IMG/VR virus record: IMGVR_UViG_3300042477_000802
Span: 62,001 to 121,933 of that record
Strand: one strand, 5' to 3'
DNA length: 59,933 bases
Origin: an uncultured virus (IMG/VR IMGVR_UViG_3300042477_000802)
Taxonomy: Duplodnaviria; Heunggongvirae; Uroviricota; Caudoviricetes
Under the pieces are notes generated by a model. It ran no database searches and was not told the origin of the DNA. It saw only the letters and a list, made by a program, of their open reading frames with translations. The first letter of the stretch is position 1. Every line of letters starts with the position of its first letter. The position numbers and the translations under genes were made by a program. Positions 3,955 through 54,734 of this stretch are shown here, piece by piece.

Positions 3955-4059
3955 GTGGTTTTTAATCTTCCCACGAAGACCATAAGACCCAAACAATAAT
4001 AGATTGAACTATAAAACTAGCAGCCATTAATCCAATGATAATAAACATATATGTCATAG

Positions 4060-4134
4060 AGACTCTAATGGGAATCGAACCCATATTAGACGGTGTTAGA
4101 TGCCGTTGTCTTAACCTAGTTAGACGATAGAGTC
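4060..4134 (-). tRNA. tRNA with CUA anticodon (amber suppressor-like)
   Basis: GACTCTA/TAGAGTC acceptor, GTCT/AGAC D-stem, ACGGC-ATCTAAC-ACCGT anticodon arm (31-39 C.A mismatch), ATGGG-TTCGATT-CCCAT T-arm; no encoded CCA. Confidence 0.75.
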
Positions 4135-4419: not shown

Positions 4420-4490
4420 TTTATTGTTAAGGTATCGAAGCCTTAATCTCCCATTTGTAGTGGGCGCTTTTACCATTAAGCTAACAATAA
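4420..4490 (-). pseudogene. Degenerate tRNA-like sequence
   Basis: TTATTGT/ACAATAA acceptor, GCTT-AATGGTAA-AAGC D-arm, 4-bp CCCA/TGGG stem with CTACAAA loop, T-arm with C before TTCGA; geometry non-canonical. Confidence 0.45.
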
Positions 4491-21530: not shown

Positions 21531-21551
21531 ATTATTCGACACATGTTTAGG

Positions 21552-21624
21552 TGGGTCCAGAGAGAATCGAACTCTCAACCGACAGATTAAAAGTCTGCTG
21601 CTCTACCAATTAAGCTATGGACCC
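21552..21624 (-). tRNA. tRNA-Lys(UUU)
   Basis: GGGTCCA/TGGACCC, TAGCTTAATTGGTAGAGC, GCAGA-CTTTTAA-TCTGT, GAGAG-TTCGATT-CTCTC. Confidence 0.93.
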
Positions 21625-25575: not shown

Positions 25576-25899
25576 GATCACACCAAAAGTTTGGAACCTA
25601 GTGCAGCCGGGGATCTGCGTCTCCTGGCCAAGAGCATAGGATAGAGAGGTGAAGAGAAATAAATGATATCCAATCAAATCATGTCACCATGATTTAATAC
25701 TATCACTCATGATCGTAAGTGTAACTAAATAGTTTCCCATTAAATTACACCCTCGATCATAGCTTTAGCTTCTTCCAGAGGGAGTCAGACGTGTGCCCAC
25801 GCTGAATTCTCTCCACACCAGAATAACCAAAGTATCTCGCTTCAACCTGGTGCACGGATCTGCACCAGGTTCCAAAATGGCGGCTCGTTGCCAAGCCAG

Positions 25900-27387: not shown

Positions 27388-27801
27388 TTACACTCGCTCG
27401 ATTCGTTGGTAATCGACATCTAATGAATAATTTCCATTACCCTCCCCCAACCAACGAACCGTCACACTCCCCTTCTCCGTCCCAAACTTGTAGAAAGTCC
27501 AATTACTGCCATTATCAGGATCCGACAGCTCTACTTCCAACTCATTCTCATCTACATCTGATGAGACCTCTTCTGCTTGCAGCAGCGGAGATCCAACTAA
27601 ATCAGACAAGTCTCCACAGATGTCTTGAATCCACACCCCCTCACAACAATCTTGTTCATGGTAGAAACGATATTGTGTTCCATTTTCGTCCACAAAGTTC
27701 ATCTCGAGATGATACTCCTTTCCATCCATGCCGATGGCACGGACGGTCTCCACCGAGACCATCACTTGACCCAACATGTCAGAAAACTGTCGCAGACTCA
27801 T
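27388..27801 (-). CDS. Conserved phage protein (HxQDCCE / WTFYK family)
   Basis: YHEQDCCEGVWIQDICGDLSDLVGSPL...WTFYKFGT..G.VTVRWLG.GNGNYS. Confidence 0.75.
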   Translation of the reverse strand: MSLRQFSDMLGQVMVSVETVRAIGMDGKEYHLEMNFVDENGTQYRFYHEQDCCEGVWIQDICGDLSDLVGSPLLQAEEVSSDVDENELEVELSDPDNGSNWTFYKFGTEKGSVTVRWLGEGNGNYSLDVDYQRIERV

Positions 27802-27821
27802 GCGTCTCTCCTTCAGAAGTT

Positions 27822-28015
27822 AGACACTTAAATGATGAGGTGAAGAATCATGGTGAGCTGGCTCTTAATTAGGTTTTGATTGATTCGGTAGTATGAATGG
27901 ACGCTACTTCCTAGATTACTCTAGGGCTCACCCGTAGCACCAAGCAACCTACTAGACAACCACGGTCTCTACTAAGCTAGAGATGCCTGACCTTCACCCC
28001 ATCATTTAAGTGTCT
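27822..28015 (-). ncRNA. Candidate ~194-nt structured RNA
   Basis: 24-bp closing stem (27822-27845 with 27992-28015, one G.U on minus strand), internal hairpins, GGTGAGC/GCTCACC complement. Confidence 0.55.
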
Positions 28016-28116
28016 TAATCCAGACACCACAAGAACACACGCGTCAGTACCAGACTGACCAGGACCAATACCAGCGGTACCACTACTACTTCCACCCGTG
28101 AGAGCTTCTCTTTCAT
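28015..28116 (-). CDS. 33-aa hydrophobic peptide
   Basis: MKEKLSRVEVVVVPLVLVLVSLVLTRVFLWCLD, GAGG RBS; similar to 35268-35369. Confidence 0.6.
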   Translation of the reverse strand: MKEKLSRVEVVVVPLVLVLVSLVLTRVFLWCLD

Positions 28117-28126
28117 CGAGCGCCTC

Positions 28127-28438
28127 TTACCTCTTTTTATTCCGAGCAGAAAAGCCCGATGCAAAAGTCATTGACAGCAAATGATCTTTTCCAGCCACAT
28201 TCAACACCACTCCAGTCTGTCGATTCACCTTCGAGGTTTCCAGTTGCTGAGTCAGGAAATCTAACAACTCACCCACCGTCAAGTGGGGATGCAATGGCCT
28301 CTTAACAAGAGTTGTGGAGAGCGGATACTCTGTTCCATCCACATTCAACACCATCCTTGTCTGTCGATCCACTTGAGAAGATTCCAGCAACTGAGTCAGG
28401 AAATCTAACAACTGACCCACTTTTAATTCTAAAGACAT
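28127..28438 (-). CDS. Protein with internal tandem duplication
   Basis: L.VG.LLDFLTQ.LE.S.V.RQT..VLNV.G twice; start MSLELK after AGAGGT RBS (the longer track ORF spans the ribozyme). Confidence 0.7.
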   Translation of the reverse strand: MSLELKVGQLLDFLTQLLESSQVDRQTRMVLNVDGTEYPLSTTLVKRPLHPHLTVGELLDFLTQQLETSKVNRQTGVVLNVAGKDHLLSMTFASGFSARNKKR

Positions 28439-28453
28439 CTTATTACCTCTTTT

Positions 28454-28528
28454 GGACTCATCAGCAACCGTCTCACGGTTGGACCTGCCTCCACGGGGAA
28501 TGGTGGACCCAGAAGACAGGTTTCGTCC
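28454..28528 (-). ncRNA. Type II hammerhead ribozyme 2
   Basis: Same core; stem III CCTG/CAGG covaries with copy 1; cleavage between 28482 and 28481. Confidence 0.9.
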
Positions 28529-28571
28529 TGGTATATGGTCACCTACCAAGTCGAACAGGTAAGCTTTACTC

Positions 28572-29375
28572 CTACAGGTAGGTGCAAGTAGGAGGAGTAT
28601 CTTTATGAGGATCGGCAAAGAAGAAGTCATAAGCTCGCGCCCATTCCTCTTCGGAAACCGGCCAACCCACGGTGGATTCCAACCAATATTGGATGTAACC
28701 CAAAGAAGCATACAGCTTCATGTGACACGCTTTGTCATGCACAGTTAGGTGTGAATTCATGTCGAAACCTCCGGAGCATCAAGATAGATGCACCAAGATT
28801 TATTGTCTGGAGTCAATCCCGCAAATCGCAGTGGTTGCGAACCCACCGCACACGGCTTGCGCATCATGGGAGGAGAGGCCACCAGAGATTGAGACCGAAG
28901 TTCTGATTCAATCTCGTGAGACCAGGAACATCGTTGAGGGAAACCCGTCAGAAGAGACTGACTAATGAGTCTCTCTACTTGAGATTTGACTTCCATCTCA
29001 CACGCGCCTCCGTCAGGTTTTACGTCTGAACAAGTGTTTCCAATGAATGCGCAAAGTGCACTCCTCTTCAGGGAGACGATCTACTCTGAAACCTTGTTTT
29101 CGTAGCTCTTCCACCACCAAATTCACTGCCATGTCAGTGGGAACTTCGAGGGAAGTTACCTTGAAGAAATTCGTGTTAACTTCGAGGAAATCGAGCACGA
29201 AGAAATTCAACAGTGCGTCTTCGCTCGTCACCATGTCAAAAATTCCAACATCAGTGGCAGGCTTCAAAAACTTAAGAATTCGCTCTGGAGTCATGCCTGC
29301 GTTCACCTGTTGCTGAAGATTGTGTCGATTGTTAATCGACAGACTAAAAGCCCGTTCTGCTGCCGTTTGCGTCAT
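28572..29375 (-). CDS. Three small hypothetical genes (28572-28760, 28757-28996, 29013-29375)
   Basis: Packed minus-strand ORFs between two hammerheads. Confidence 0.55.
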
Positions 29376-29510: not shown

Positions 29511-31400
29511 CTATGCAACTGCTCGCTTGGCGTCTTTCACCTCTTCCTTCATCAAATCCGGAACTCCCTTGATCATCGGCTCCACTCGAGATTCCGCTCT
29601 CGGCTCCACCCGAATCTTCTCCGGCATCGGCAACTCCATCACTTGCGCCACAATTGGCGCCAAGAAGGCCATGGCCTCATTGACCACTTCATTGCCCACC
29701 ATGGCAATGGAATCAATGGCCCATTCATTGGCCAAAGCTTGCGCACGGACATCCTCTCGCATCATCGGAAAGTAACGGAAACTCCAGGCCAATCCCTGCT
29801 GAATCATGGCCAACCCATAATCCGTGGCCATCACTTCCTTGGCCGTGACAATCCAATGCTTGGGCGCCTTCTTGGCCTTCAAGAAAGCCAGCAAAGCCGT
29901 GCGGGCGGTCTTGGGAATGGTCTTGGCTGCCACTCGAAAGGTCCCCTGAGACAGATCCGACTTGACATGATCCATGAAACTGTTGCTCATAACAAACTCC
30001 TGTGATTCCGATGCTGATTGATTCTGATCCCCCGATGTCGGGGGGACAAACTGATGTGTCTGTGTGGCGGGTTTAGCGACCTGGTCTGAACCGTGATGAT
30101 ACCAATGATCGTCTTCTTTCTTGAATTCGATCGCTGGTCCATCTACCTGCTTCCAGCCACGTGCCATCAACTTCTTGGCTTTTTCTTGTCTCTTCTCCGT
30201 CAAATTAGTCAAGACAGAGAAAGTCTTCTTACGACAGGATGCCAGAATGTCTGAGATAGAAGACTTCACTCGCTCCGCGAAAACAAAGCAGTGTCGATCT
30301 GGATGATAGGCCAGACAATTGACGTCTAGGTCTTCCTGACCCTCGGAAGGATATTGGGCACGATCGGATCCAAACACCACATCCATTGGTAAACTGGCAC
30401 CCGTCTTGGTGTCAGTTAAAACATAGGTGTTGGTGTAAAACCCACCTTCGTATCCCAACCCTTTCATTTTTTCACACCTCCAACCCGATGGAAGATTCGC
30501 CTCCATCTGTTTGATGAACGCCACCGAGTAATCGACGGTGGCATGAGGGTGGAAAGGGAAAAAGAGATCCAGGTCTTGGGGGAGGAAGCGGGTTCCTCCC
30601 CCAATTGTATATGACCACGCAATGCGATCTCGCACCGCACCACCAAATAAATAACCACGAATCGGGTGATTACCCACTTGGGGACAGACGTTTTGCAAAC
30701 ACCTGGTCACCAATCCCCAGGCCTGATGATTGAATTCAGACTGAACCTGTTCACTGACATGAGTGCCCATGGTCACATCTTTCCAGCCATTAGCTGTCAA
30801 CTTCTCCACTTTGGCTTGACGTTCCTTCGACAAAGGAGAGACCACTTTGAATTCTTTCCGCCGGATGGCCTCCTGCAGTTGTTCTACTGTGGTGGTTTTC
30901 TCTACCACCTTCGAGTAGAGAAAGAAATCATCATCTGGATGATAGGCCAGACAATTGATATCCAAATCTTCTTGGAAGAGACAAGGTTGTTGACGAACGG
31001 TTGAGATCACTACATCTAGTGGAATCTGCGCGCCTGTCTGCCTATTACGCAGACAGTAGGTATTAGTCTCGTAGGTTCCACCATACGACTCAGAACGCCC
31101 CTCTAACCAAAACTCCCACTCCTTCGGGAGTTTCCCTTGCAATTCTGTAAGGAACAAGAAACTATGATCCACACTGGAGCGTGGATCTACCTGGAAAAAG
31201 AGATCGATGTCTCGGGGAAGGAAATAGCTCTTTTTGCTCCCATACCAACAGAGACGCTCTCGGACCGCACCCCCAAAGATGTATCCAGGAGGATCTTCTC
31301 CTCGTGGAAGAGTCTCCAAACACTTGGAGATGAGAGACCAGACTTTGAGATTAAATTCTTGCTGTTTCTTGACCGGAATGACAGAAGGAGGTGTCGACAT
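29511..31400 (-). CDS. Tandem CCA-adding/poly(A)-polymerase-like nucleotidyltransferase domains fused to shared C-terminal domain
   Basis: Two copies of FGGAVR...D[IL]DLFF...EDLD[IV]NCLAY; C-terminus SDLSQGTFRVAAKTIPKTAR. Confidence 0.8.
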   Translation of the reverse strand: MSTPPSVIPVKKQQEFNLKVWSLISKCLETLPRGEDPPGYIFGGAVRERLCWYGSKKSYFLPRDIDLFFQVDPRSSVDHSFLFLTELQGKLPKEWEFWLEGRSESYGGTYETNTYCLRNRQTGAQIPLDVVISTVRQQPCLFQEDLDINCLAYHPDDDFFLYSKVVEKTTTVEQLQEAIRRKEFKVVSPLSKERQAKVEKLTANGWKDVTMGTHVSEQVQSEFNHQAWGLVTRCLQNVCPQVGNHPIRGYLFGGAVRDRIAWSYTIGGGTRFLPQDLDLFFPFHPHATVDYSVAFIKQMEANLPSGWRCEKMKGLGYEGGFYTNTYVLTDTKTGASLPMDVVFGSDRAQYPSEGQEDLDVNCLAYHPDRHCFVFAERVKSSISDILASCRKKTFSVLTNLTEKRQEKAKKLMARGWKQVDGPAIEFKKEDDHWYHHGSDQVAKPATQTHQFVPPTSGDQNQSASESQEFVMSNSFMDHVKSDLSQGTFRVAAKTIPKTARTALLAFLKAKKAPKHWIVTAKEVMATDYGLAMIQQGLAWSFRYFPMMREDVRAQALANEWAIDSIAMVGNEVVNEAMAFLAPIVAQVMELPMPEKIRVEPRAESRVEPMIKGVPDLMKEEVKDAKRAVA

Positions 31401-31512
31401 GGGTATCTCCGACCCGGCTCTCTGGAGTTATTAAGCGCACTTACAGGTTGGAAAGAAAGTGAGGAGTGCTCATCTGATTCCTTCTCTTGCTTTAGTGACT
31501 ACTGACTTCTCG

Positions 31513-31713
31513 TCAATAGCGACACTGACACACCTGGCACCGATTCCACTGCAGATTGGAATAGTTGGTCACTTGATACAAGGCCAACTTTTTCCCGGTC
31601 GGGATTCCTCCCAAACACTGCAGACAGGTCGGAACCGTCTCGCCTGGACGAAAGTACAAGGGATTCTTGGACAGACGAACCCGCAATTGATCCAACCACT
31701 TGGCTCGGGCCAT
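31513..31713 (-). CDS. Small Zn-finger-like protein
   Basis: CLQC...CQVC; AGGAG RBS downstream of motif copy 31746. Confidence 0.65.
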   Translation of the reverse strand: MARAKWLDQLRVRLSKNPLYFRPGETVPTCLQCLGGIPTGKKLALYQVTNYSNLQWNRCQVCQCRY

Positions 31714-31757
31714 GAGAGTTGCTCCTAGGTTGATGAGACGAGTGTTTAGTCGCTGGG

Positions 31758-31927
31758 TGACTCAGGTAGGAATCGAACCTACACTCAGCTAGATGCTGGC
31801 AAACGTGTACCTTTTAACCAGAACCTAACTGAGTCGGCAAACACTGAGGGTACACCTGAGTGTTCACTTCCTGTGTGAACTAATGTGAACTAATTACAGG
31901 AAACAGAAACCATTCTGTCATTGAGTC
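31758..31927 (-). ncRNA. Expanded tRNA-like RNA, family A copy 1 (170 nt)
   Basis: GACTCA/TGAGTC acceptor, ACAG-AATGGTTT-CTGT D-arm, three long stems, GTAGG-TTCGATT-CCTAC T-arm. Confidence 0.7.
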
Positions 31928-31933
31928 AAAAAA

Positions 31934-32053
31934 AAGCCCGAGTAGGAATCGAACCTACACCAAGACTTAACTCTGAGTCGTGTCGACCCGTACCTCAGAA
32001 TCAAGCTCAGCGAACCTGTAGATAAACAGCAGAAACCATTCTGTCGGGGGGGA
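31934..32053 (-). ncRNA. Expanded tRNA-like RNA, family A copy 2 (degenerate acceptor)
   Basis: Same D-loop and T-arm; two internal stems; poor acceptor pairing. Confidence 0.55.
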
Positions 32054-32202
32054 GACTCAGGTAGGAATCGAACCTACACTCATAGATATGCTGACCATCG
32101 TATCGATCCTTTGGCCAACATACTGAGTCGGTGAACACTCACCCTGAGTATTCACTTCCAATCAGTACTAATTGGAAACAGAAACCATTCTGTCATTGAG
32201 TC
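32053..32202 (-). ncRNA. Expanded tRNA-like RNA, family A copy 3 (150 nt)
   Basis: Same acceptor, D and T arms; TTCCAAT/ATTGGAA replaces TTCCTGT/ACAGGAA. Confidence 0.7.
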
Positions 32203-32257
32203 AGAAAACCCACCAGGTTCACCAGAGTGAACCTAGGAACCTGGTGGATGTGTCACT

Positions 32258-32692
32258 TCACTTCTCCGCCTTCTCCTTCACGTCGGACCACCGACAGATC
32301 CCACCACCCTTGCCCCTGCGAATCCCGAAAGCTCGGGTGCGAGGAGGCTCAGCCAGCTGGATGACCTCACCCGACTTGCGATCCTTCTTCTCCTGACGGT
32401 CGGCGTTGTCGTGGATGTAGGCCGTCACCTTCTCCTTCAGCACCGAGAAGTTCTCCGGAGTCGGATTGAGAGCCTGGACCACCCCACTGATCAGACTCTC
32501 CATCGGCAGAAACACACCGGGATACTGATCGAAAGCCGCATGGACATTCGATCCGATGGTGGTGTCCTCCAGCTCACGCTGGGCCTTGTAGCGGCTCAGT
32601 GCCATCTGGAATGCCTGCGTGGTCGCAGCCTCATCCACCTCACCCGTCACCTCATCACGAACCAGAACCACGTTGATCGAAAAACTGGACAT
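32258..32692 (-). CDS. Hypothetical protein, paralog of 12248-12667
   Basis: See paralog; GAGGAG RBS. Confidence 0.8.
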   Translation of the reverse strand: MSSFSINVVLVRDEVTGEVDEAATTQAFQMALSRYKAQRELEDTTIGSNVHAAFDQYPGVFLPMESLISGVVQALNPTPENFSVLKEKVTAYIHDNADRQEKKDRKSGEVIQLAEPPRTRAFGIRRGKGGGICRWSDVKEKAEK

Positions 32693-32739
32693 ATGCGTAT
32701 CTCCTCTGAAACCTGAAACCGTTGTTGTTGTTGTTGTTG

Positions 32740-32928
32740 TTAAGAGAGATTAAGAACTTGAGAAGCTTCCTCCTCGGAGAGGATCAGGTCGGTGGAGCAG
32801 TCGAGATAGGCATGGCGCCCAGTGCTCGGTTGCCAACAATAGAGCAGCCTTCTGCCCGTCCGGGTAACGAATTCCTCTTCCGTCCCACCATTGGCTGGAT
32901 ACCAGTTGCCTTGTTCCCGGGTTTGCAT
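32740..32928 (-). CDS. Small hypothetical protein
   Basis: MQTREQGNWYPANGGTEEEF...; directly after promoter-motif copy. Confidence 0.65.
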   Translation of the reverse strand: MQTREQGNWYPANGGTEEEFVTRTGRRLLYCWQPSTGRHAYLDCSTDLILSEEEASQVLNLS

Positions 32929-33035
32929 GTTCCACCTGTAGGGAAGTGTAACCAAACTTAGTCGCTGGGAAACCGTGTCACTACCTGTCGTCTCGTGTCA
33001 GACAGGAAAGTGCGACCAAATTTAGTCGCTGGGAC

Positions 33036-33650
33036 TCAGCCCGCCGAAAACTTGCTGACACTGGGTTTCGACTTGACGCCCCATCCCAACCGACCCGACG
33101 ACTTGGCTTGACCCTTGATCACGGGTCCAGGCTTGGATGCCAAGACTCGTGCCATGGCATCCTGACGAGTGATGGTAGAGGAGAGCAGTTGACCATGCTT
33201 GTTGAGTTGCGTGGCATGAGACACCACGGCAAACCAATCGTGCTCACCCTCGAACAATCGTCGGTCCGCCCAACGATCGGCCTCTTGGGGCTGGTCGAAT
33301 TCGGCCACCAGATCCACCCATTCCTGGTCCTCGGTCTTGAAACGTTGCGCCACCTTGCCTTCGGAGGTATAGATGGTGACTTGCCAGTTTTTGGGCGTGC
33401 GCTCCGTCACTTCGTGCGCTCGCTCCAACTTGGACACTTCGGAGGCAATCATGTGATTGAGAATCACTTGACGCAATTCCGACAAGGCCGGAGTCGGCAT
33501 CAGCTCTTTGGCATCCAACTTGGCCAGAATCGGGCCGGTGACCGGATAGAGCTCTCCCGTTTCCAGAAAGGTCCGGTGAGCCGCCAGGAAGGCACTGGCC
33601 GAAGCCGCCGCTTTGGTTCCCGACTTGTGCAAAAACATCTTGGGCGTCAT
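33036..33650 (-). CDS. Hypothetical protein
   Basis: Start MTPKMF after AAAGGA RBS; stop 2 nt before the next motif copy. Confidence 0.75.
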   Translation of the reverse strand: MTPKMFLHKSGTKAAASASAFLAAHRTFLETGELYPVTGPILAKLDAKELMPTPALSELRQVILNHMIASEVSKLERAHEVTERTPKNWQVTIYTSEGKVAQRFKTEDQEWVDLVAEFDQPQEADRWADRRLFEGEHDWFAVVSHATQLNKHGQLLSSTITRQDAMARVLASKPGPVIKGQAKSSGRLGWGVKSKPSVSKFSAG

Positions 33651-33714
33651 ACTGGTATCCTTTCTGTAGGGAAGTCTCACACCATGTCAGACTTCGAGAT
33701 CACAATTTAGTCGC

Positions 33715-33780
33715 TGGGGTCTTCTCCAGGTATCGAACCTGGCTTGGTTACCACACCAAGGCTCCGTCATGCCAGAAGAC
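33715..33780 (-). ncRNA. 66-nt mini tRNA-like RNA
   Basis: GTCTTCT/AGAAGAC-C-CCA, CCAGG-TTCGATA-CCTGG T-arm, CTTGG/CCAAG hairpin with GTG in loop. Confidence 0.6.
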
Positions 33781-33872
33781 TGGCCAAGTAGTATCACCAC
33801 TGCCGAGGGTATGATCCCTCCTAGTGACCAACACGACACTTAAGACTAGTGCTGGTGTTTCGTAGACTAGTT

Positions 33873-33924
33873 AGGCTCGTCAGTAATGGTTCCTACCATT
33901 AGACCATCTCAGATGGTTTCGCCT
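33873..33924 (-). ncRNA. Type II hammerhead ribozyme 4 (compact, unrelated stems)
   Basis: AGGC-GAAA-CCAT..ATGG-TC/TAATGG-TAGGAA-CCATTA-CTGACGA-GCCT; cleavage between 33902 and 33901. Confidence 0.85.
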
Positions 33925-33985
33925 TAGTTACCGTCTCGCATCATGAGGGAAGAGCGACAAAACTTAGTCGCTGGGAAGTTGACTT

Positions 33986-34172
33986 AGCAACCTGCGTGCC
34001 ATCCGCTCGCGTCTTGCATCCTTAGGGGAGAGTGACAAAACTTAGTCGCTGGGAAACCGTGTCAGCCAGTAGCGTGCCAGTAGCGCGTTCATCCTTTCGC
34101 ATCGTCTCGCACCCTTAGGAGAGTGTGACAAAACTTAGTCGCTGGGAAGTTGACTTAGCAACCTGCGTGCCA
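33986..34172 (-). promoter_or_regulatory. Single sigma54 -24/-12 boxes interleaved with the phage motif
   Basis: TGGCACGCAGGTTGCT at 33986-34001 and 34157-34172 (consensus TGGCACG-N4-TTGC); variant at 34064-34079. Confidence 0.75.
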
Positions 34173-34262
34173 TCGTATCGTGTCGCATCGGCAACCATAG
34201 GGGTAGGTGACAAAATTTAGTCGCTGGGAATTCCCTTTACGCGTATTAGGTGAGTGACTCCG

Positions 34263-34434
34263 TGGCTCACTTTATGCTAATTGCAATTAAGATGCCATTA
34301 AGTGCATTCCTGGTAAAACTTTACTGGTCTACTTCCTGTTATTAGCAATAGGTATGCCAAGGTAAGAGTATGTGTGATAGATGAGAGGAATCAAGTAAGT
34401 GGTCTACAGATTGCAGAATGCAAAGACAAGGCCA
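34263..34434. promoter_or_regulatory. Three inverted pairs of sigma54-type boxes
   Basis: TGG-N10-GC-N5-GC-N10-CCA at 34263-34297, 34325-34359 (one GT variant), 34400-34434. Confidence 0.7.
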
Positions 34435-34445
34435 AGGTAGAAACG

Positions 34446-34478
34446 AAAAAAGCCTCGCTCTCCGAAGAGAAGCGAGGC
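34446..34478 (-). terminator. Intrinsic terminator
   Basis: GCCTCGCT..TTCG..AGCGAGGC hairpin followed by T6. Confidence 0.85.
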
Positions 34479-34479
34479 C

Positions 34480-34860
34480 CACCCGTTTTAGGGTTAATGG
34501 ATTAGGGGCTGTCACGACAATGACCCAGATATGTCCGGCGTCTCATGGGACAGAAGGGGATTAACACCTAGAGCTACCTGAGACTGTCAGCGTAGCGGAT
34601 GCTTCCCGAGGATGCAACTATGTAATGTGAACTTCACATATCGATAACCCTATTATTATCTGTGATAGAGTTTTACACCAAAACACACACTTTTTTGATT
34701 GTTCACATCTGGACCAGGTAAACTATCAGGGTTATCGTTTCGTCAGCCACCGCAGCCTACTTTACGAGCTGGTGGTCCGGAGGGATGACGAAACTATCCT
34801 AGCGCGGTGGCATCACTTATTCCTATACGTAGGAGGTTGAGTCAACGCCAGTAGTAGGTT
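34480..34860 (-). ncRNA. Candidate large (~380 nt) structured RNA
   Basis: No track ORF; many complementary segments (GTTTCGTCA/TGACGAAAC, CGATAACCCT/AGGGTTATCG, GCTAC/GTAGC, TGTCC/GGACA), ends in terminator. Confidence 0.55.
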
Positions 34861-34863
34861 TGA

Positions 34864-35229
34864 CTACTTGGACTTACACAGCTCTCGAAAAACGTAGTCT
34901 GGACCCAGATCTTGCACCCGCTGGACAGCCAGGTGGAATTCGATCTGTTGATCGATCTTCAGACATTCGATGATGAAGAACTTGGGAGGACTCATGTGAG
35001 GAGCCGCAAAGAGATTGACCATCGCTTCTCGTTGCTGCCACACACACAAGCCTTCCGCACGTTCCACCAAAAGAACGGTTTCGTCATCGCCCAAGGGTCG
35101 GATGTGATCTGGATCGATGCCATGAGACATCTTCCGAATCTGTTGCGAGGCTTGATACCAAGCTTGTGCCAGATGTCGGGTCTCACGAGGACATTCGTCC
35201 AAGAGTTGATTCAACTGGAGTGCATTCAT
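34864..35229 (-). CDS. Hypothetical protein
   Basis: GGAGG RBS directly after motif copy 35254. Confidence 0.75.
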   Translation of the reverse strand: MNALQLNQLLDECPRETRHLAQAWYQASQQIRKMSHGIDPDHIRPLGDDETVLLVERAEGLCVWQQREAMVNLFAAPHMSPPKFFIIECLKIDQQIEFHLAVQRVQDLGPDYVFRELCKSK

Positions 35230-35267
35230 CTTTTAACCTCCGGGAGAAAAAACTTAGTCGCTGGGAG

Positions 35268-35369
35268 TCATCCGCCAAGGGACCACAGAAAGGCGTTCCC
35301 CAAACACCAGCCCACCAGCAAAGACAGCAGGACCGCCACCAACACCAGCACCGCACCCTCACGCATCAT
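35268..35369 (-). CDS. 33-aa hydrophobic peptide
   Basis: MMREGAVLVLVAVLLSLLVGWCLGNAFLWSLGG; GAGGA RBS. Confidence 0.6.
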   Translation of the reverse strand: MMREGAVLVLVAVLLSLLVGWCLGNAFLWSLGG

Positions 35370-35508
35370 GACTTCCTCTGTGGAATGGGTTGAATCCAAC
35401 CCTCCCAGTGGTCCCGTTGGAAACGGGACAGCTCTTGTTGGGCAGCTGACAGAGAGGAGTAGTCTAGACGGAGTACTCCCGTGGGATGTTTGATTACCAA
35501 GCGATAGA

Positions 35509-35682
35509 TCACTTGGTCCACACCAGATAGAAGAACCCTCCCAGGATGACCAGCGCCCAGGGGAACTGAATCCCACTGCCGATCGGAATGGTGAACCCTG
35601 CGACCCAGGCCGCAGGAGCAAACATCTTGATCGCCATCACCACCCCAAACATGGCCGCTACCACCACCAACAACTTGCTCAT
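35509..35682 (-). CDS. 57-aa two-helix membrane protein
   Basis: Not in track: MSKLLVVVAAMFGVVMAIKMFAP...WALVILGGFFYLVWTK; AAGGAG RBS after motif copy 35705. Confidence 0.7.
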   Translation of the reverse strand: MSKLLVVVAAMFGVVMAIKMFAPAAWVAGFTIPIGSGIQFPWALVILGGFFYLVWTK

Positions 35683-35716
35683 CTGTAGTCTCCTTTGACA
35701 AAACTTAGTCGCTGGG

Positions 35717-35790
35717 TGGCCCGGGTGGGAGTCGAACCCACAAGAAAGCGGTTTTTAAAACCGCCACGTCTGCCATTCCGTCACCGGGCC
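35717..35790 (-). tRNA. tRNA-Leu(UAA) with short variable region
   Basis: GGCCCGG/CCGGGCC-A, GGAATGGCAGAC, GCGGT-TTTAAAA-ACCGC, GTGGG-TTCGACT-CCCAC; 74 nt. Confidence 0.88.
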
Positions 35791-36006
35791 TCAATCATAG
35801 GCATGTGAAACAAAACTTAGTCGCTGGGAACCTAACGCATCGTGTTACATCGTTAGGTGTAGGTGACAAAACTTAGTCGCTGGGAGATTGCCCCAATCCG
35901 CGTACCATCCTTTCGTTCATCCGTACCGCATCAGCAACCTTAGGGGTGTGCGAAAAAATTTAGTCGCTGGGAAAACCTGAGCTCCCTCTTAAGGTGACTG
36001 GGAGTC

Positions 36007-36112
36007 TGGCATGAGCCTTGCTAGGCTGCAATTTGTGTGCCAACAAGTACATCCCAGGTAAAAAGTCAGAACTCAATTGGCATCTATTATGCAGACTGCA
36101 ATTAATAGACCA
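36007..36112. promoter_or_regulatory. Two inverted pairs of sigma54-type boxes
   Basis: 36007-36042 (6-nt spacer) and 36078-36112 (5-nt spacer); all four halves GG-N10-GC. Confidence 0.72.
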
Positions 36113-36118
36113 AGACAG

Positions 36119-36147
36119 AAAAACAAGAAAGCCGGCTAACCGGCTCT
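36119..36147 (-). terminator. Intrinsic terminator
   Basis: AGCCGG-TTAG-CCGGCT followed by TTCTTGTTTTT. Confidence 0.7.
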
Positions 36148-36152
36148 CCTTT

Positions 36153-36440
36153 TTACTTCCAGAGGTTTCTCTTACGGGCAACTTCCGCGAGCGCCATTGT
36201 TTCCCTCTGGACACGAGATTCCTCGAATATCCAACGCTCTGCTTCCTCTTCCTCTCTCTCTTCCTCTGAGCGTCTATTTTCCTCCCAAGCTTGAAACGGA
36301 TCCAGTTTCTGGATCTGGCGCATCATCACTTGGTTGGCCATTCGATGATTGGGAAGAATCCACTTTTTCCGCTCCACCGTCGGCAGCAACGGATCCCACT
36401 TCGGAAACAGAGGATTGATGACCAAATATTCCATCTTCAT
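36153..36440 (-). CDS. Hypothetical protein
   Basis: GAGGT RBS after motif copy 36471; Glu-rich. Confidence 0.7.
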   Translation of the reverse strand: MKMEYLVINPLFPKWDPLLPTVERKKWILPNHRMANQVMMRQIQKLDPFQAWEENRRSEEEREEEEAERWIFEESRVQRETMALAEVARKRNLWK

Positions 36441-36484
36441 GAGACACCTCTCAGGCTGCGAGAAAAAAACTTAGTCGCTGGGAG

Positions 36485-36724
36485 TCAGAACGGAATCGGA
36501 TGCTCCTCTTGACACACCGGCTCCCAAGGTCCCCAGGCTCGACACACCGCTCTCCACGGATCTCGTTGCTGCGCCTGGAACCGCTCTTCTTCTTCCGCTT
36601 CCTCTTGCAGCCGCTCTTGTTTGGCGAACTGGTGCGCCATACGCCGCTCTTCCTCCCAAGTATCATTGGGAAAGGAAGTTTCCTCCAACCAATCGTAGTA
36701 GTCTTCCTCATTCAGGAACAACAT
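36485..36724 (-). CDS. Acidic hypothetical protein
   Basis: Start moved to MLFLNEE (AAGGA RBS); the longer track ORF runs through regulatory DNA. Confidence 0.7.
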   Translation of the reverse strand: MLFLNEEDYYDWLEETSFPNDTWEEERRMAHQFAKQERLQEEAEEEERFQAQQRDPWRAVCRAWGPWEPVCQEEHPIPF

Positions 36725-36909
36725 GTGAATCCTTCTGAGCGCTAGGCTCACTACTAGGACTGCGAGAAAAAACTTAGTCGCTGGGAGATTGCCCGAGCAA
36801 TCTGCAAACCATCCTTTCGTTCCGTGCCACATCGGCAACCTTAGGGGTGTGTGAAAAAATTTAGTCGCTGGGAAGCTCGCTTCGAGCTCTCTCATGCACT
36901 CATGTTTCC

Positions 36910-37022
36910 TGGCTTGCTTCCTGCTCTTAGCAATGAATAGGCCAACCTTAAACATCCAACCACATGAGTTTAGAATGAAGTCTTAACTGGCACCAGAATT
37001 GAGATTAGCAATTCTTAGGCCA
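36910..37022. promoter_or_regulatory. Two inverted pairs of sigma54-type boxes
   Basis: 36910-36944 and 36988-37022 (one GA variant), 5-nt spacers. Confidence 0.7.
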
Positions 37023-37031
37023 ATCAACAAC

Positions 37032-37077
37032 AAAAAGCCAAACAGGAGATCCTGGTGATCAGCCAGGGCTCCTGTTC
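37032..37077 (-). terminator. Probable intrinsic terminator
   Basis: AACAGGAG.CCTGG..CCAGG.CTCCTGTT hairpin then GGCTTTTT. Confidence 0.6.
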
Positions 37078-37180
37078 TTGTCTGCAACAGCTGAGTCGGC
37101 CACCGCTGACGCTCAAGAAGTTGAGCACCAGCGTAATGGTTAGTCAGGCATGGGAGATAACTTTCCTGTTCTGGCTCGTC

Positions 37181-37822
37181 TCAGTACAGATCCTTGCGGA
37201 TCTCCACCAGACGTTCCCGCTCCAACTGCGCCAGGGCAGTTGCCTTGGCGCGCGCTTCCGAGAAGAGCGGAGCCGCTTCCGCCTCTCGCTCGTGCTGAAT
37301 GATGGCCGCCACTGCCAGCCGCTCTCTCGCTTCCAGGTTGTTCCGATGCGTGCTGACCGTGTCAGGCACTCCCGAAACGTACCCCTGGATCGAAGCCTGG
37401 AGTCGAGCCGCTTCCTGCTTCTCAGTTTTAGAGACCGCCGGAAGATGCTCCCCTCGCTCTTGGCGAGCCTGACGAGCAGCCAGGCTGCGAGCCTGGAATT
37501 CCTGAGAGCCGAAGTCTTTGCTGACATCGTAGCCGATGAAAGCGTTGATCGCTGCGATCATGTCGCTGCGATGAGCATCTTGGTTGAAGTGACGAACCTC
37601 AGCAGGATCTGTCATGTAGCCTGCGACCTTGGTTCGCGCCAAGTACTCGCGATGGTCGATCTGCTCCGCACGAGGTAGCAGGCTGGAAGTGGGAGCTTCC
37701 TTATTGGCCTTGCGGAAGGCTGGAGTCTTGGGAGGCTTGACTTCCACCAGCTGCTTCGTGGGTTCGGGCGAAGCGTAGGCCGAGACGAAACCGGAGAGTA
37801 GACGATCGATGGCATCGGACAT
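37181..37822 (-). CDS. Hypothetical helical protein, first gene of the leftward arm
   Basis: Start MSDAID after GAGGT RBS; GC-rich codons. Confidence 0.78.
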   Translation of the reverse strand: MSDAIDRLLSGFVSAYASPEPTKQLVEVKPPKTPAFRKANKEAPTSSLLPRAEQIDHREYLARTKVAGYMTDPAEVRHFNQDAHRSDMIAAINAFIGYDVSKDFGSQEFQARSLAARQARQERGEHLPAVSKTEKQEAARLQASIQGYVSGVPDTVSTHRNNLEARERLAVAAIIQHEREAEAAPLFSEARAKATALAQLERERLVEIRKDLY

Positions 37823-38024
37823 GAGACACCTCACTGTGAGAGGGGAAGGAACTGGGGCTCACCACTAGGACCGAGCGACAAAACTTAGTCGCTGGGAGCT
37901 TTCCAGCGAGGAGCAGGGCGCCCTTTTCGGGCGAGAGAGACACGGCTCGTCCCTAGGGAGCAGTGACAAAACTTAGTCGCTGGGAAAAGAGCGAAGCGAG
38001 CTCTCTTAAGGTCGCTTCGTCCTA

Positions 38025-38231
38025 GGGTCCGTCCCTTGCTAGTCAGCAAAACCAATGCCAACTAAGACTAGATTACTTAGTCTTGGCAAGCTTCTTGCTA
38101 AAAAACAATTAATATGCCAAGCAATTAATTAATAATAAGTTAATACTTCTTAATAAAGTTATTAATTAATAGTTAGTTATTCTTTGATTAGTTGTTGGTT
38201 TGATTCTTGCTAAGAATCAAGAAGAATGCCT
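38025..38231. promoter_or_regulatory. Three inverted pairs of sigma54-type boxes
   Basis: 38025-38060, 38084-38119, 38196-38231, 6-nt spacers; two minus halves have a -12 variant. Confidence 0.65.
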
Positions 38232-52792: not shown

Positions 52793-52996
52793 ATGGAAAT
52801 TAAGTCTGTATTAAAAATAATTTGGTTTGTATTAACAGTAATTATCATAATTGGCATGTTAGGTTTAGCTGTGTTATCTTTAACCATGCCTCATTGGGGT
52901 TTATTTTTAGTGGCGGTATCTATTGCTGCTATTTTTGGATTATTTTTCTTTTTTGATGTTAAGGCAATGATAGATAAAGAGGATCAAGATGACTGA
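52793..52996 (+). CDS. Small two-helix membrane protein
   Basis: Two hydrophobic segments. Confidence 0.65.
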   Translation: MEIKSVLKIIWFVLTVIIIIGMLGLAVLSLTMPHWGLFLVAVSIAAIFGLFFFFDVKAMIDKEDQDD

Positions 52997-54734
52997 TTTT
53001 AGTAATAAAGTAGAATTAATTGGAACTTATGGCTCGGATGAGACGCATGCTTTGTCGGCTTGGACCTCTACTTCTAGAGATTTAACGGAAGAAAAACGAG
53101 GACGTATGGGGAAGCTGCTAACTATGTTAGCATCAGAAGGGCATCATACTCCTTTTGAAAAATCCACACAACATTTTTTAGTAACTTGTGATATGGCCTC
53201 ACATATTCATTTATTGAAACATCGGATAGGAACTTCTTGTGTAACTGGAGATACAGAAATTTGGACTCCTTTACCAGGAGGAGGTATCAAGAAAAGAAAA
53301 ATAGAAGATTTATATGATTCTTATACTAATGGAATTAACTCTTATTCTTCTAAAAATAAACCATATAAAAGAATTTATGGCAGAAAAGTCCCAGTTAGAA
53401 CTAAAGAACAAGATACTAATTTTATTAGTAAATCTTATATTTCTAATGTTTTCTTTAATGGAATTAAAGAAGTATATGAGTTTGAAACGAGTTCTGGTAA
53501 AAAAATTAAAACAACTTTAGATCATTTATTTTTTACCCCAGAAGGCTGGATAAAAATTGGTGACTTATGTCAAGTAGAATTAAGTAACAATTTAATAGCT
53601 ACTATGCAAAATAATGATGCTTGGGTGGCCACTAATGGTATTAAAATAAATGATTATAAAAGACCGTACACATTTAGAAATTGGTGGAATGATAAAGAAA
53701 ATATAAAAACACGACATGAAGTTGCTTTAGAAAACGGATTAAAATATGAATTAATTAAAAAATGGGGTTATATCTTTAATATTCCTTTTAAGGAAGATTT
53801 AAATAAAGATTTTAAAAAAGGTAATATTCCTTGGAACCATAAAAAATATGGTTATTCGATTAATAGAAAGGTTAATGGAATTAACCCTAATATTAATAAA
53901 AATTTATCACATAAAATATGGAGAGCGACTGTAGGGAATTGGACTACAGAACAACTCCCAAAATTATTGGTAAAATTTAATTATGTTTGTCAAGCTCAAA
54001 ATGGAATATGTTCAAGAAATTTTGTCGGACATCACATAATACCAGTTTCTGTAAATAAAGAATTAGCCACTAATTTTGATAATTTAACTTTAGTCTGTCA
54101 AGATTGTCATAGAAGAATTCATTCTAATCACGAATCTGAATTGGTGTTTGCTGAAAATTATCAAAAAATGGATTTAAAAAAGGAATTTTCTCAAAGACTG
54201 CCCAGAAAAGTGAGAAGAAAAGTTTTTAACTATGAAAAAATAGTTAAAGTGACCTATATGGGAGCTCAAAAAGTTTATGATTTAGAAGTAGATTCTACTC
54301 ATTGTTATGTGGCAAATGGTTTCTTAATTCATAATTGCAATGCAGAATCGGCCAGATATAAAGAATTAAAAGACGATAAATTTTATATTCCTAAAGACTG
54401 GGAACAAGATGAACAAGTAAAATTAATTTCACATTGTGAAGATTCGATTAAAAAATATCATGAATGTCTAGCTAGATTGGTAGCTCAAGGTGTTCCTAGA
54501 AAACGAGCAAAAGAAAGTGCACGTTTTTACTTACCATATTCTAATCAAATAACAGCAGATATTATGTTTAATTTTAGGTCCTTTATGCATTTTATCAATC
54601 TACGATTTTCTGAACATGCTCAGAAAGAAATTAAAGATATTGCGCAGCAAATGTTATTCCAAGTTTGGAACACACAACAATTTAATTTGTCTTTATCAGC
54701 TTTTGGTTGGACAGAAGATAAAATTATAAAATGA
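52989..54734 (+). CDS. thyX: Flavin-dependent thymidylate synthase with intein
   Basis: GHHTPFE, KHRIGTS|CNAESARY signature after splicing, KESARFYLP, NFRS, HAQKEI. Confidence 0.92.
   Translation: MTDFSNKVELIGTYGSDETHALSAWTSTSRDLTEEKRGRMGKLLTMLASEGHHTPFEKSTQHFLVTCDMASHIHLLKHRIGTSCVTGDTEIWTPLPGGGIKKRKIEDLYDSYTNGINSYSSKNKPYKRIYGRKVPVRTKEQDTNFISKSYISNVFFNGIKEVYEFETSSGKKIKTTLDHLFFTPEGWIKIGDLCQVELSNNLIATMQNNDAWVATNGIKINDYKRPYTFRNWWNDKENIKTRHEVALENGLKYELIKKWGYIFNIPFKEDLNKDFKKGNIPWNHKKYGYSINRKVNGINPNINKNLSHKIWRATVGNWTTEQLPKLLVKFNYVCQAQNGICSRNFVGHHIIPVSVNKELATNFDNLTLVCQDCHRRIHSNHESELVFAENYQKMDLKKEFSQRLPRKVRRKVFNYEKIVKVTYMGAQKVYDLEVDSTHCYVANGFLIHNCNAESARYKELKDDKFYIPKDWEQDEQVKLISHCEDSIKKYHECLARLVAQGVPRKRAKESARFYLPYSNQITADIMFNFRSFMHFINLRFSEHAQKEIKDIAQQMLFQVWNTQQFNLSLSAFGWTEDKIIK
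53238..54335 (+). mobile_element. 366-aa intein with HNH endonuclease
   Basis: CVTGDTEI start, TTLDHLF block B, VYDLEV...ANGFLIHN/C end; GHHIIP...NLTLVCQDCHRRIH. Confidence 0.9.

Follow-up and report, generated by a model that had tools for sequence, protein, structure and literature searches.

A tandem trio of expanded tRNA-like RNAs with an intact elbow and no anticodon arm in an uncultured caudovirus

Non-decoding, tRNA-like RNAs of phages have been known since RNAs C and D of bacteriophage T4. These molecules (species 1 and 2, products of rnaC and rnaD) are small, stable RNAs encoded in line with tRNA genes, and their biological role is unknown (PMC3014915). The bacterial YrlA RNAs are a second group of tRNA mimics; PMC4201824 describes conserved D- and T-arms and a partnership with Ro60 in bacteria and phages, a permuted tRNA module (T-arm, closed acceptor-like hairpin, D-arm), RNA ends that form a Ro-binding stem with the sequence GNCGAAN0-1G, and genes that lie within about 4 kb of the Ro60 gene. 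Oversized tRNA genes with 'enigmatic introns', missed by standard bacterial gene finders, are reported for Lak megaphages (PMC6784885). Here we describe a trio of expanded tRNA-like units encoded on the minus strand at 31758-32202 of a window, by which we mean the whole 59,933-nucleotide (nt) stretch analysed, that comprises positions 62001-121933 of the IMG/VR virus record IMGVR_UViG_3300042477_000802 (121,933 bp; CheckV completeness 28%). We lean towards reading the trio as functional, tRNA-derived RNAs that use the tRNA body as a scaffold and do not decode. No tandem, expanded, anticodon-less tRNA-like phage genes of this build were found in the literature, supplements not being covered.

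The three units, designated A (150 nt), B (about 113 nt) and C (170 nt), are arranged head to tail at a spacing like that of a tRNA operon (A-B gap about 4 nt, B-C gap 9 nt). A and C follow a common plan, in which a GACUCAA 5′ strand leads through a two-base UG linker to a D-arm (ACAG-AAUGGUUU-CUGU) and three successive hairpins (S1, S2 and S3), after which come the T-arm GUAGG-UUCGAUU-CCUAC, a CUGAGUC strand that pairs with the 5′ strand, and one discriminator-like base. In unit A (32053..32202, minus strand) these elements are the acceptor 5′ strand at 32196-32202, D-arm at 32179-32193, S1 at 32156-32177, S2 at 32131-32155, S3 at 32078-32128, T-arm at 32061-32077, acceptor 3′ strand at 32054-32060 and a discriminator U at 32053. 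The corresponding parts of its paralogue, unit C (31758..31927, minus strand), are at 31921-31927, 31904-31918, 31868-31902, 31837-31867, 31783-31834, 31766-31782 and 31759-31765, with a discriminator A at 31758; the S1 loop of this unit contains a 10-nt tandem duplication. The acceptor has 6 bp and one mismatch in A and C, and 5 bp (CCCGA/TCGGG, 32044-32048 with 31937-31941) in unit B (31936..32048, minus strand), which continues with a D-arm (32030-32044), a 4-bp mini-hairpin with a 6-nt loop (32016-32029), a long S3 hairpin (31959-32011) and a T-arm (31942-31958). A single C at 31936 separates its acceptor strand from a run of eight U residues at 31928..31935 on the same strand.

All three units contain the D-loop and T-arm that the original prediction, made from the sequence without database searches, had listed, AATGGTT(T) and GTAGG-TTCGATT-CCTAC, both present as quoted on the minus strand, and each has an acceptor stem formed by its two ends. 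The elbow was described there as intact, and the sequence bears this out, since the D-loop has its GG and the T-loop reads TTCGATT, the canonical form. That two or three long stems replace the anticodon and variable arms is correct for the three hairpins of A and C and needs amending for B, in which the replacement consists of the mini-hairpin and one long hairpin. The related loops expected at the tip of the last stem were also found, as GGATCGATACGA in A, GGGTCGACACGA in B and GGTACACGT in C, the conserved part being GG..AYACG.

The trio is real and lies well beyond chance. The D-arm 15-mer ACAGAATGGTTTCTG occurs in three exact copies (32179-32193, 32030-32044 and 31904-31918), and one further match in the window has two mismatches; four matches within two mismatches compare with 0.22 expected, and none of 100 shuffles reaches four. 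The T-arm 17-mer GTAGGTTCGATTCCTAC is present in three exact copies in the 121,933-bp record, all on the reverse strand, whereas its backwards-read control has none. Minimum free energy (MFE) folds recover an acceptor stem, D-arm, hairpins and T-arm in each unit, joined in a six-way junction in A and C and a five-way junction in B. The energies are -64.1 kcal/mol for A (z -6.45), -63.5 kcal/mol for C (z -5.22) and -43.8 kcal/mol for B (z -2.82), and for each unit none of 200 shuffles folds as well. In a 511-nt precursor fold the local hairpins are all retained (z -9.74; 0 of 100 shuffles as good); the identical acceptor and T-arm strands of A and C can also cross-pair in the precursor, a trivial degeneracy. 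A covariance model built from the three units, R1, scores A at 178.5 bits, B at 88.4 bits and C at 153 bits.

The units are not decoding tRNAs, as had been predicted, nor are they intron-bearing tRNAs or tmRNAs. ARAGORN calls no tRNA or tmRNA at 31758-32202 with default settings or with its -i or -m options. At the gathering score, Rfam yields only four ordinary tRNAs in the window and none at the trio, where the tRNA family RF00005 has no match at the gathering score or at E ≤ 10 and tmRNA (RF00023) has none at E ≤ 10; what does appear there at E ≤ 10 is tRNA-Sec at 16.6-19.4 bits, below the cut-off of 47, together with three chance-level matches to unrelated families. YrlA (RF02553) has no match at E ≤ 10 in 31500-32500. 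The search of 4227 Rfam families at E ≤ 10 likewise gave no match to skipping-rope, DUF2693-FD, salivarius-1, viral TLS or mascRNA, the presence of a model for each in the release being unconfirmed. Among hairpins with a 5-bp stem and a 7-nt loop, only the three T-arms carry U at the second loop position, and the others of these dimensions that can be drawn in the region all conflict with stable stems. When every single deletion in the stretch from D-arm to T-arm was tried, a 5-bp stem and a 7-nt loop with U33 and a purine at position 37 being required, no anticodon arm was restored in A or C and two were in B, both by cuts inside a stem. The units cannot decode because extra hairpins stand in place of the codon-reading arm. 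The original prediction had named a strong match to an intron-containing tRNA or a Y RNA as contrary evidence, and none emerged from the ARAGORN intron mode, the excision scan or RF02553.

Comparison with described RNAs identifies T4 rnaC as the nearest natural precedent in design. This 139-nt RNA, annotated in NC_000866 as 'small, stable RNA; species 1 RNA', resembles the trio in that long hairpins lead up to a canonical T-arm (CCGGGUUCGAAUCCCGG) at its end, and it folds well (z -4.57). The two share the combination of a tRNA upper half with hairpins and no anticodon arm, but they are not homologous, and R1 has no match to rnaC or rnaD at L161:3909-4172 at E ≤ 1. The fold of rnaC also lacks a clear D-arm and rnaD lacks a T-arm (z -0.83), whereas the trio has a full D-arm, a six-way junction and three paralogues. 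The ends of YrlA form the Ro-binding stem, while those of the trio form an acceptor stem in an unpermuted topology. The Lak cases resolve to an anticodon plus one excisable insert, and units A and C have no such solution. Class II tRNAs (Tyr, Leu, Sec) have in common with the trio the acceptor, the GG D-arm, the T-arm and a long arm 5′ of the T-stem; they differ in that the trio has no anticodon loop, its 'variable arm' extends to 51-53 nt, and A and C carry two further hairpins. In the recombinant 'tRNA scaffold' used in Escherichia coli, a structured RNA reportedly replaces the anticodon stem and benefits from tRNA processing and nuclease resistance. That scaffold is an engineered tool with an architecture like that of the trio, which consists of natural genes whose products may work in a comparable way.

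The pattern of change among the three paralogues is suggestive of constraint on structure. When the aligned units were compared over the structure used for the covariance model (45 pairs, 117 cells), standard pairs occupied 94% of the cells, against 34-45% with the 3′ partner slid. Five of the 45 pairs are changed on both sides, compared with 0-2 in the slid controls, a number reached by 14 of 500 shuffles; the covariation score of 0.185 was reached by 7 of 500. The compensatory changes to which the original prediction drew attention are present in S1 (TTCCAAT/ATTGGAA in A, TTCCTGT/ACAGGAA in C), where two pairs differ on both sides. The D-arms are identical at 18 of 18 positions between A and C and at 17 of 18 between B and either of the others, and the T-arms at 17 of 17 in all comparisons. 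Identity between A and C in the inserts is 13/20 in S1, 21/26 in S2 and 34/49 in S3, each with insertions or deletions, and the acceptor of B matches that of A at 2 of 7 positions with pairing retained. The near-identity of the D- and T-arms beside diverged, paired inserts is what makes the elbow arms look frozen while the rest moves yet stays paired. The earlier description of the units as selected accordingly finds moderate support in the paired cells and double changes of these three related sequences. The DNA run X16 has no variant letters, so there is no covariation at the population level.

The acceptor-type stem, the GG D-arm and the canonical T-arm are the parts that make up the L-shaped top half of a tRNA, and because this half is kept, recognition and trimming like those of a pre-tRNA, and stability, would be expected. 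RNase P would act at the 5′ end, the 3′ end would be trimmed and CCA added, and the product would presumably be stable. The anticodon and variable region has given way to two or three hairpins that differ between copies, the last of which (S3) occupies the class II variable-arm site and bears the conserved apical string. The tRNA body would provide processing, stability and docking to tRNA-binding factors, with the hairpins as payload, in the manner of a natural 'tRNA scaffold'; the most likely job would be to serve an RNA-handling protein, whether phage or host, as tRNA mimic or adaptor. The investment of this phage in tRNA and RNA-repair genes (Ro60, an RNA ligase, lysyl-tRNA synthetase (LysRS) and 12 tRNAs) counts in favour of such a role. 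As to origin, a class II phage tRNA gene may have been duplicated, lost its anticodon loop and grown hairpins. S3 is placed directly 5′ of the T-stem, which is the class II variable-arm position, and unit B has class II topology throughout, running from the acceptor and D-arm through a small hairpin where the anticodon would be to a long arm and the T-arm. The tRNA-Tyr(GUA) genes of two related phages have a T-arm identical to that of the trio and an AAUGG-type D-loop, and the only Rfam clan relative that aligns with the trio is the long-arm tRNA-Sec model.

Outside its own record the trio occurs in one other IMG/VR record (L007), 100% identical over the aligned 555 nt, and a third IMG/VR record of this phage ends short of the region. 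Searches of GenBank phages by blastn gave no match; the exact D-arm is found in 86 IMG/VR stretches and the trio in L007 only; a gapped D-loop/T-loop pattern recovered only this phage's other record in the viral scan, and proteins encoded on either side of the trio (629 and 144 amino acids (aa)), used as IMG/VR anchors, each retrieve the same phage only. Further matches to the gapped pattern, in seven metagenome-contig stretches and four from GTDB, were all ordinary tRNAs behind a chance 10-mer. Applied to nine other related or identical records, R1 found ordinary tRNAs and a few oversized tRNA-like genes of different build; a 148-nt match in Myxococcus phage Mx1 proved to be two adjacent small tRNA-Arg genes. 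The covariance-model search proposed with the original prediction yields no orthologue on which statistics of the R-scape type could draw.

The oversized genes in relatives measure 169 nt (G001:81995-82163, L141), 119 nt (G004:39666-39784, L126) and 126 nt (G008:53265-53390, L175:1266-1391), the last of them uncalled by ARAGORN. All three have the T-arm GUAGGUUCGA(A/U)UCCUAC as in the trio and no usable anticodon arm, and their payloads include a three-hairpin domain, a large D-loop insert and a hairpin in the anticodon loop. BLAST with the G001 and G008 elements found no counterpart in five other records each, where only T-arm or acceptor/D-arm fragments match. Oversized, anticodon-less tRNA-like genes seem to be recurrent and fast-evolving in this clade.

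With respect to expression, three of the four libraries that match part of a 1301-nt stretch were examined (X17, X18 and X19), parts left uncovered carrying no meaning. Contigs of X17 and X18 fall on the upstream open reading frame (ORF) only. The rRNA-depleted metatranscriptome X19 contributes two 151-nt contigs of depth 2, at 31717-31867 and 31963-32113, which are a weak hint at most that the trio is transcribed and are silent on processing, because contigs reveal neither strand nor ends nor level and may reflect DNA carry-over.

Several observations weigh against a function as tRNA-scaffolded RNAs. Both X19 contigs bridge unit boundaries, as they would if they came from an unprocessed precursor or from carried-over DNA. 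The sequence directly upstream contains no recognised promoter, and unit A is preceded by a terminator-like hairpin. Unit B has an acceptor of only 5 bp and no linker nucleotides at positions 8-9, and CCA is not encoded in the trio. The invariance of the arms could come from recent duplication or gene conversion instead of selection. The blastn, pattern, protein-anchor and R1 searches found no trio orthologue outside this phage, which means that support for the structure comes from the three paralogues only. No partner or target was found, and the 122-kb record contains four complementary 11-mers that could serve as antisense targets, compared with about 12.6 by chance.

The genomic surroundings bear on an alternative that we regard as unlikely on balance, namely that the trio is cis-acting punctuation at the end of an operon, where cuts by RNase P or a 3′ nuclease would separate and stabilise the upstream mRNA and the elements would terminate or insulate transcription, with no function in trans. 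Upstream lies the 144-aa ORF (32258-32692), and between it and unit A a strong hairpin followed by GUUUUCU (32210..32247, minus strand), which is terminator-like and is retained in the 511-nt precursor fold; the trio must then be reached by read-through or be transcribed without a recognised promoter of its own. No sigma-70-like promoter was found in 31000-36500, where 4.1 are expected. At the other end, one copy of a promoter-like motif, CCCAGCGACTAA (31740..31757, minus strand), abuts the 3′ end of unit C and is followed by a 66-aa ORF with a ribosome-binding site and ATG (31513-31713, minus strand). The trio accordingly stands between an ORF stop with its hairpin and the next promoter-like motif, as punctuation would. 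The T-arm and acceptor stack of unit B together with the U8 run also score as terminator-like (site 31956-31934), the RNA-library contigs span the unit boundaries, and the motif similarly abuts two further 3′ ends, that of a tRNA-Leu (at 35717) and that of a fourth element with a T-arm (33722-33790). For such a purpose, however, one unit or one terminator would suffice, and three elaborate junctions with conserved apical strings and compensatory changes exceed the need; moreover, the upstream gene is kept in four of five related records without such an element downstream.

The motif is of interest in itself. In the 121,933-bp record, 26 copies of its core, CAGCGACTAA, lie on the minus strand and none on the plus strand, as a rule a short way ahead of a gene or tRNA, and copies of YCCCAGCGACTAARTTTT in the window include those at 31744-31757, 32965, 33029, 33714, 33971-34224, 35261, 35712-35967, 36478-36868 and 37892-37980. 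Several are arrayed in tandem at intervals of about 56-93 nt, with a conserved CCUAAGG-like leader after them. This strand-specific sequence is probably a phage-specific promoter or a similar signal. A T7-type RNA polymerase (PF00940) that might read it was found in none of five records, a negative that carries no information, since control genomes are equally silent. The fourth tRNA-like end (33722-33790, minus strand), uncalled by ARAGORN, is contained in a unit of about 240 nt that starts at the motif at 33971. Its T-arm is CCAGG-TTCGATA-CCTGG, and CCCA comes after its 7-bp acceptor (GTCTTCT/AGAAGAC); it also has a 6-bp hairpin with a 6-nt loop and lacks a D-arm. Some 130 nt upstream there is a hairpin, TAATGGTAGGA, that resembles a D-arm. 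The trio, this element, tRNA-Leu(UAA) (35715-35790), small ORFs and a dense set of promoter-like motifs occupy an 'RNA island' at about 31700-38100 with 50-54% GC, compared with 30-46% elsewhere in the record.

The phage itself is very large. Complete genomes of relatives, found through the Ro60 protein at about 70% identity, measure 433-448 kb, and for this reason we take the record to be a fragment of a lake phage of roughly the 440-kb class. The phage is abundant in many metagenomes from lakes, and the stretch is present in many lake-water and freshwater runs; at least half of the sampled words occur in 16 of the 20 entries listed, eight of these 16 being possible sources of the DNA, and the listing spans 17 studies. 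ARAGORN finds 12 tRNA genes in the record, five of them in the window. The record also encodes a D12-class methyltransferase, a full-length LysRS (L111:620-2164, minus strand; TIGR00499, 500.8 bits against a cut-off of 427.6), an Rnl-type RNA ligase (L111:11753-12835, minus strand) and a Ro60 orthologue with TROVE (2.1e-9) and PF25045 vWA_Ro60 (8.6e-18) matches (L110:7589-9142, that is record 27589-29142, minus strand). The combination of Ro60, LysRS, RNA ligase and a tRNA-Lys(UUU) at 21550-21624 of the window has the look of a kit against attack on tRNA-Lys. Other features of the window are a tRNA with anticodon CUA, of the amber suppressor type and labelled Pyl by ARAGORN (4059-4134, minus strand), and one with anticodon ACA (4420-4490, minus strand); six paralogous proteins of 286-761 aa with weak DUF6745 matches (5233-25677, minus strand); and a ThyX thymidylate synthase (52989-54734, plus strand) split by an intein with an HNH endonuclease domain. 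The tRNA with anticodon CTA raised the idea of TAG recoding, which was set aside when reading TAG as glutamine or as sense gave no convincing lengthening of ORFs.

The presence of Ro60 invites another unlikely proposal, slightly less probable than punctuation, that the trio are its Y-RNA-type partners, with the tRNA module recruiting a tRNA-binding effector and one hairpin binding the Ro60 ring, as YrlA does in bacteria and mycobacteriophages. In its favour, the orthologue is encoded on the same strand as the trio, bacterial Y RNAs are themselves tRNA mimics with conserved D- and T-arms (PMC4201824), and searches around the Ro60 gene, through the rest of the record and in three complete relatives revealed no canonical YrlA. 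From this last result it follows that the Ro60 of this clade is without a known RNA partner. All YrlA matches in the record and relatives score 15-28 bits, where the cut-off is 69, and 13 of 14 control genomes have sub-threshold matches of similar strength; one of 19.4 bits (G000:24059-24121) is an AT-rich hairpin before an HNH endonuclease gene. Set against this, the trio lies 64.6 kb (64,616 bp) from the Ro60 gene rather than within 4 kb, a regular-expression search for GNCGAAN0-1G on both strands of 31740-32260 gave no match, and RF02553 is silent at the trio at E ≤ 10, whereas in the control mycobacteriophage Willis it scores 36.1 bits (E 1.1e-4) just upstream of the Ro gene. The unpermuted topology, with ends that form an acceptor stem, also tells against it, as do the relatives that have Ro60 and no trio. 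As a Ro60 partner the trio is a possible but unsupported candidate. About 2 kb downstream of the Ro60 gene stands an odd tRNA-like gene (L110:5620-5712, record 25620-25712, minus strand) that scores 33.3 bits on tRNA-Sec and is uncalled by ARAGORN. Its acceptor has 9 bp, its anticodon loop is CUGUAAA (GUA), its T-stem is short and its CCA is encoded; it adjoins another tRNA-like sequence, likewise uncalled, in which the anticodon loop contains UGG. In Myxococcus phage Mx1 (Ro60 50.5% identical), a match of the tRNA-Sec type at 33.9 bits, again missed by ARAGORN, lies some 3 kb upstream of the Ro60 gene, and a second such match there is called as a tRNA-Ser.

Beyond the 66-aa ORF, the next large gene downstream encodes the 629-aa protein (29511..31400, minus strand), which is built of two tandem domains of about 200 aa that are 41% identical to each other (E 2e-55) and each contain GGAVR(E/D)R...D(I/L)DLFF, a motif pair that we take to resemble the GGxVRD...DxD signature of the head domain of CCA-adding enzymes and poly(A) polymerases. 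Tool support for a CCA-enzyme-like tandem nucleotidyltransferase is weak but consistent: PF01743 (PolyA_pol head) matches residues 40-158 at E 0.023, phrog_1614 nucleotidyltransferase matches at E 1.2e-4, P0007, one of five distant homologues, has a PolyA_pol match of 22.5 bits, and neighbours in the Atlas at 0.93-0.94 are clusters in which 12-30% of members carry Gad2 and 13% PolyA_pol. An AlphaFold2 model of the first domain is poor, with a mean predicted local distance difference test score of 52.5; searches of PDB sequences with the protein gave nothing useful, and PADLOC (0 families for four proteins) and NCBIfam gave nothing for the proteins neighbouring the trio. A search of 5.8 billion proteins returned three matches, including the protein itself and a paralogue in the window. 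Its C-terminal third is related to one of the DUF6745-like paralogues (51% identity over 29% of the query).

The 629-aa protein is absent from all five related records, four of which retain the 144-aa protein with no trio-like RNA after it. Since both are missing from relatives that keep the upstream gene, the trio and the nucleotidyltransferase may be one lineage-specific insertion, a link drawn from their adjacency only, and the protein is a possible partner of the RNAs. A fuller version adds the 66-aa ORF, so that all of them make up a single module peculiar to this lineage, with RNAs that are dedicated substrates or adaptors for the nucleotidyltransferase or for Ro60; it strikes us as unlikely, slightly more so than the proposal of Ro60 partners. 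Were it true, the trio would represent a new class of tRNA mimic, Y-RNA-like or anti-defence but non-permuted, and one case of a wider, undescribed habit among large phages of putting payload RNAs on tRNA bodies.

Distinctly unlikely in our view is the idea that the trio are decoys or sponges for host factors that read the acceptor/T-arm half or the elbow, such as acceptor-end toxins or tRNA-sensing defences. An intact elbow and acceptor in three copies without an anticodon would suit that purpose, and tRNA-Lys(UUU), LysRS and RNA ligase are typical counter-measures to attack on tRNA; the resemblance of the neighbouring nucleotidyltransferase to clusters with the anti-defence name Gad2 in 12-30% of members is a lead only. 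The elaborate, divergent hairpins are unneeded in a decoy, and PADLOC finds no defence or counter-defence family among the four neighbouring proteins. No more probable is decay, by which the units would be duplicated tRNA genes with insertions and no function. The lack of orthologues fits pseudogenes, as do the oversized tRNA-like genes that each related phage has as its own without counterpart, as in fast turnover, and the degenerate unit B with its 5-bp acceptor and 6-nt loop. Decay would, however, strike the D- and T-arms equally, yet these are identical at 17-18 of 18 and 17 of 17 positions while the inserts have diverged, and the inserts form stable hairpins kept by compensatory changes, with fold z-scores as low as -6.45. 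Very improbable, finally, are true tRNA genes interrupted by introns and spliced, perhaps by the phage RNA ligase, into decoding tRNAs: such a ligase is encoded, and PMC6784885 treats oversized megaphage tRNA genes as intron-bearing, but the excision scan, the ARAGORN intron mode and the lack of any hairpin other than the T-arms with U at the second loop position all speak against them.

Considered as functional RNAs on a tRNA scaffold, the trio is an unusually clean case among non-decoding phage RNAs, with three paralogues, invariant elbow arms and variable hairpin payloads. Together with the versions that its relatives have of their own, it suggests a repeated conversion of tRNA genes, among large phages, into carriers of other structured RNAs. 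If a partner were found, a function would be provided for this class of RNA, and the old question posed by RNAs C and D of T4 would become testable.

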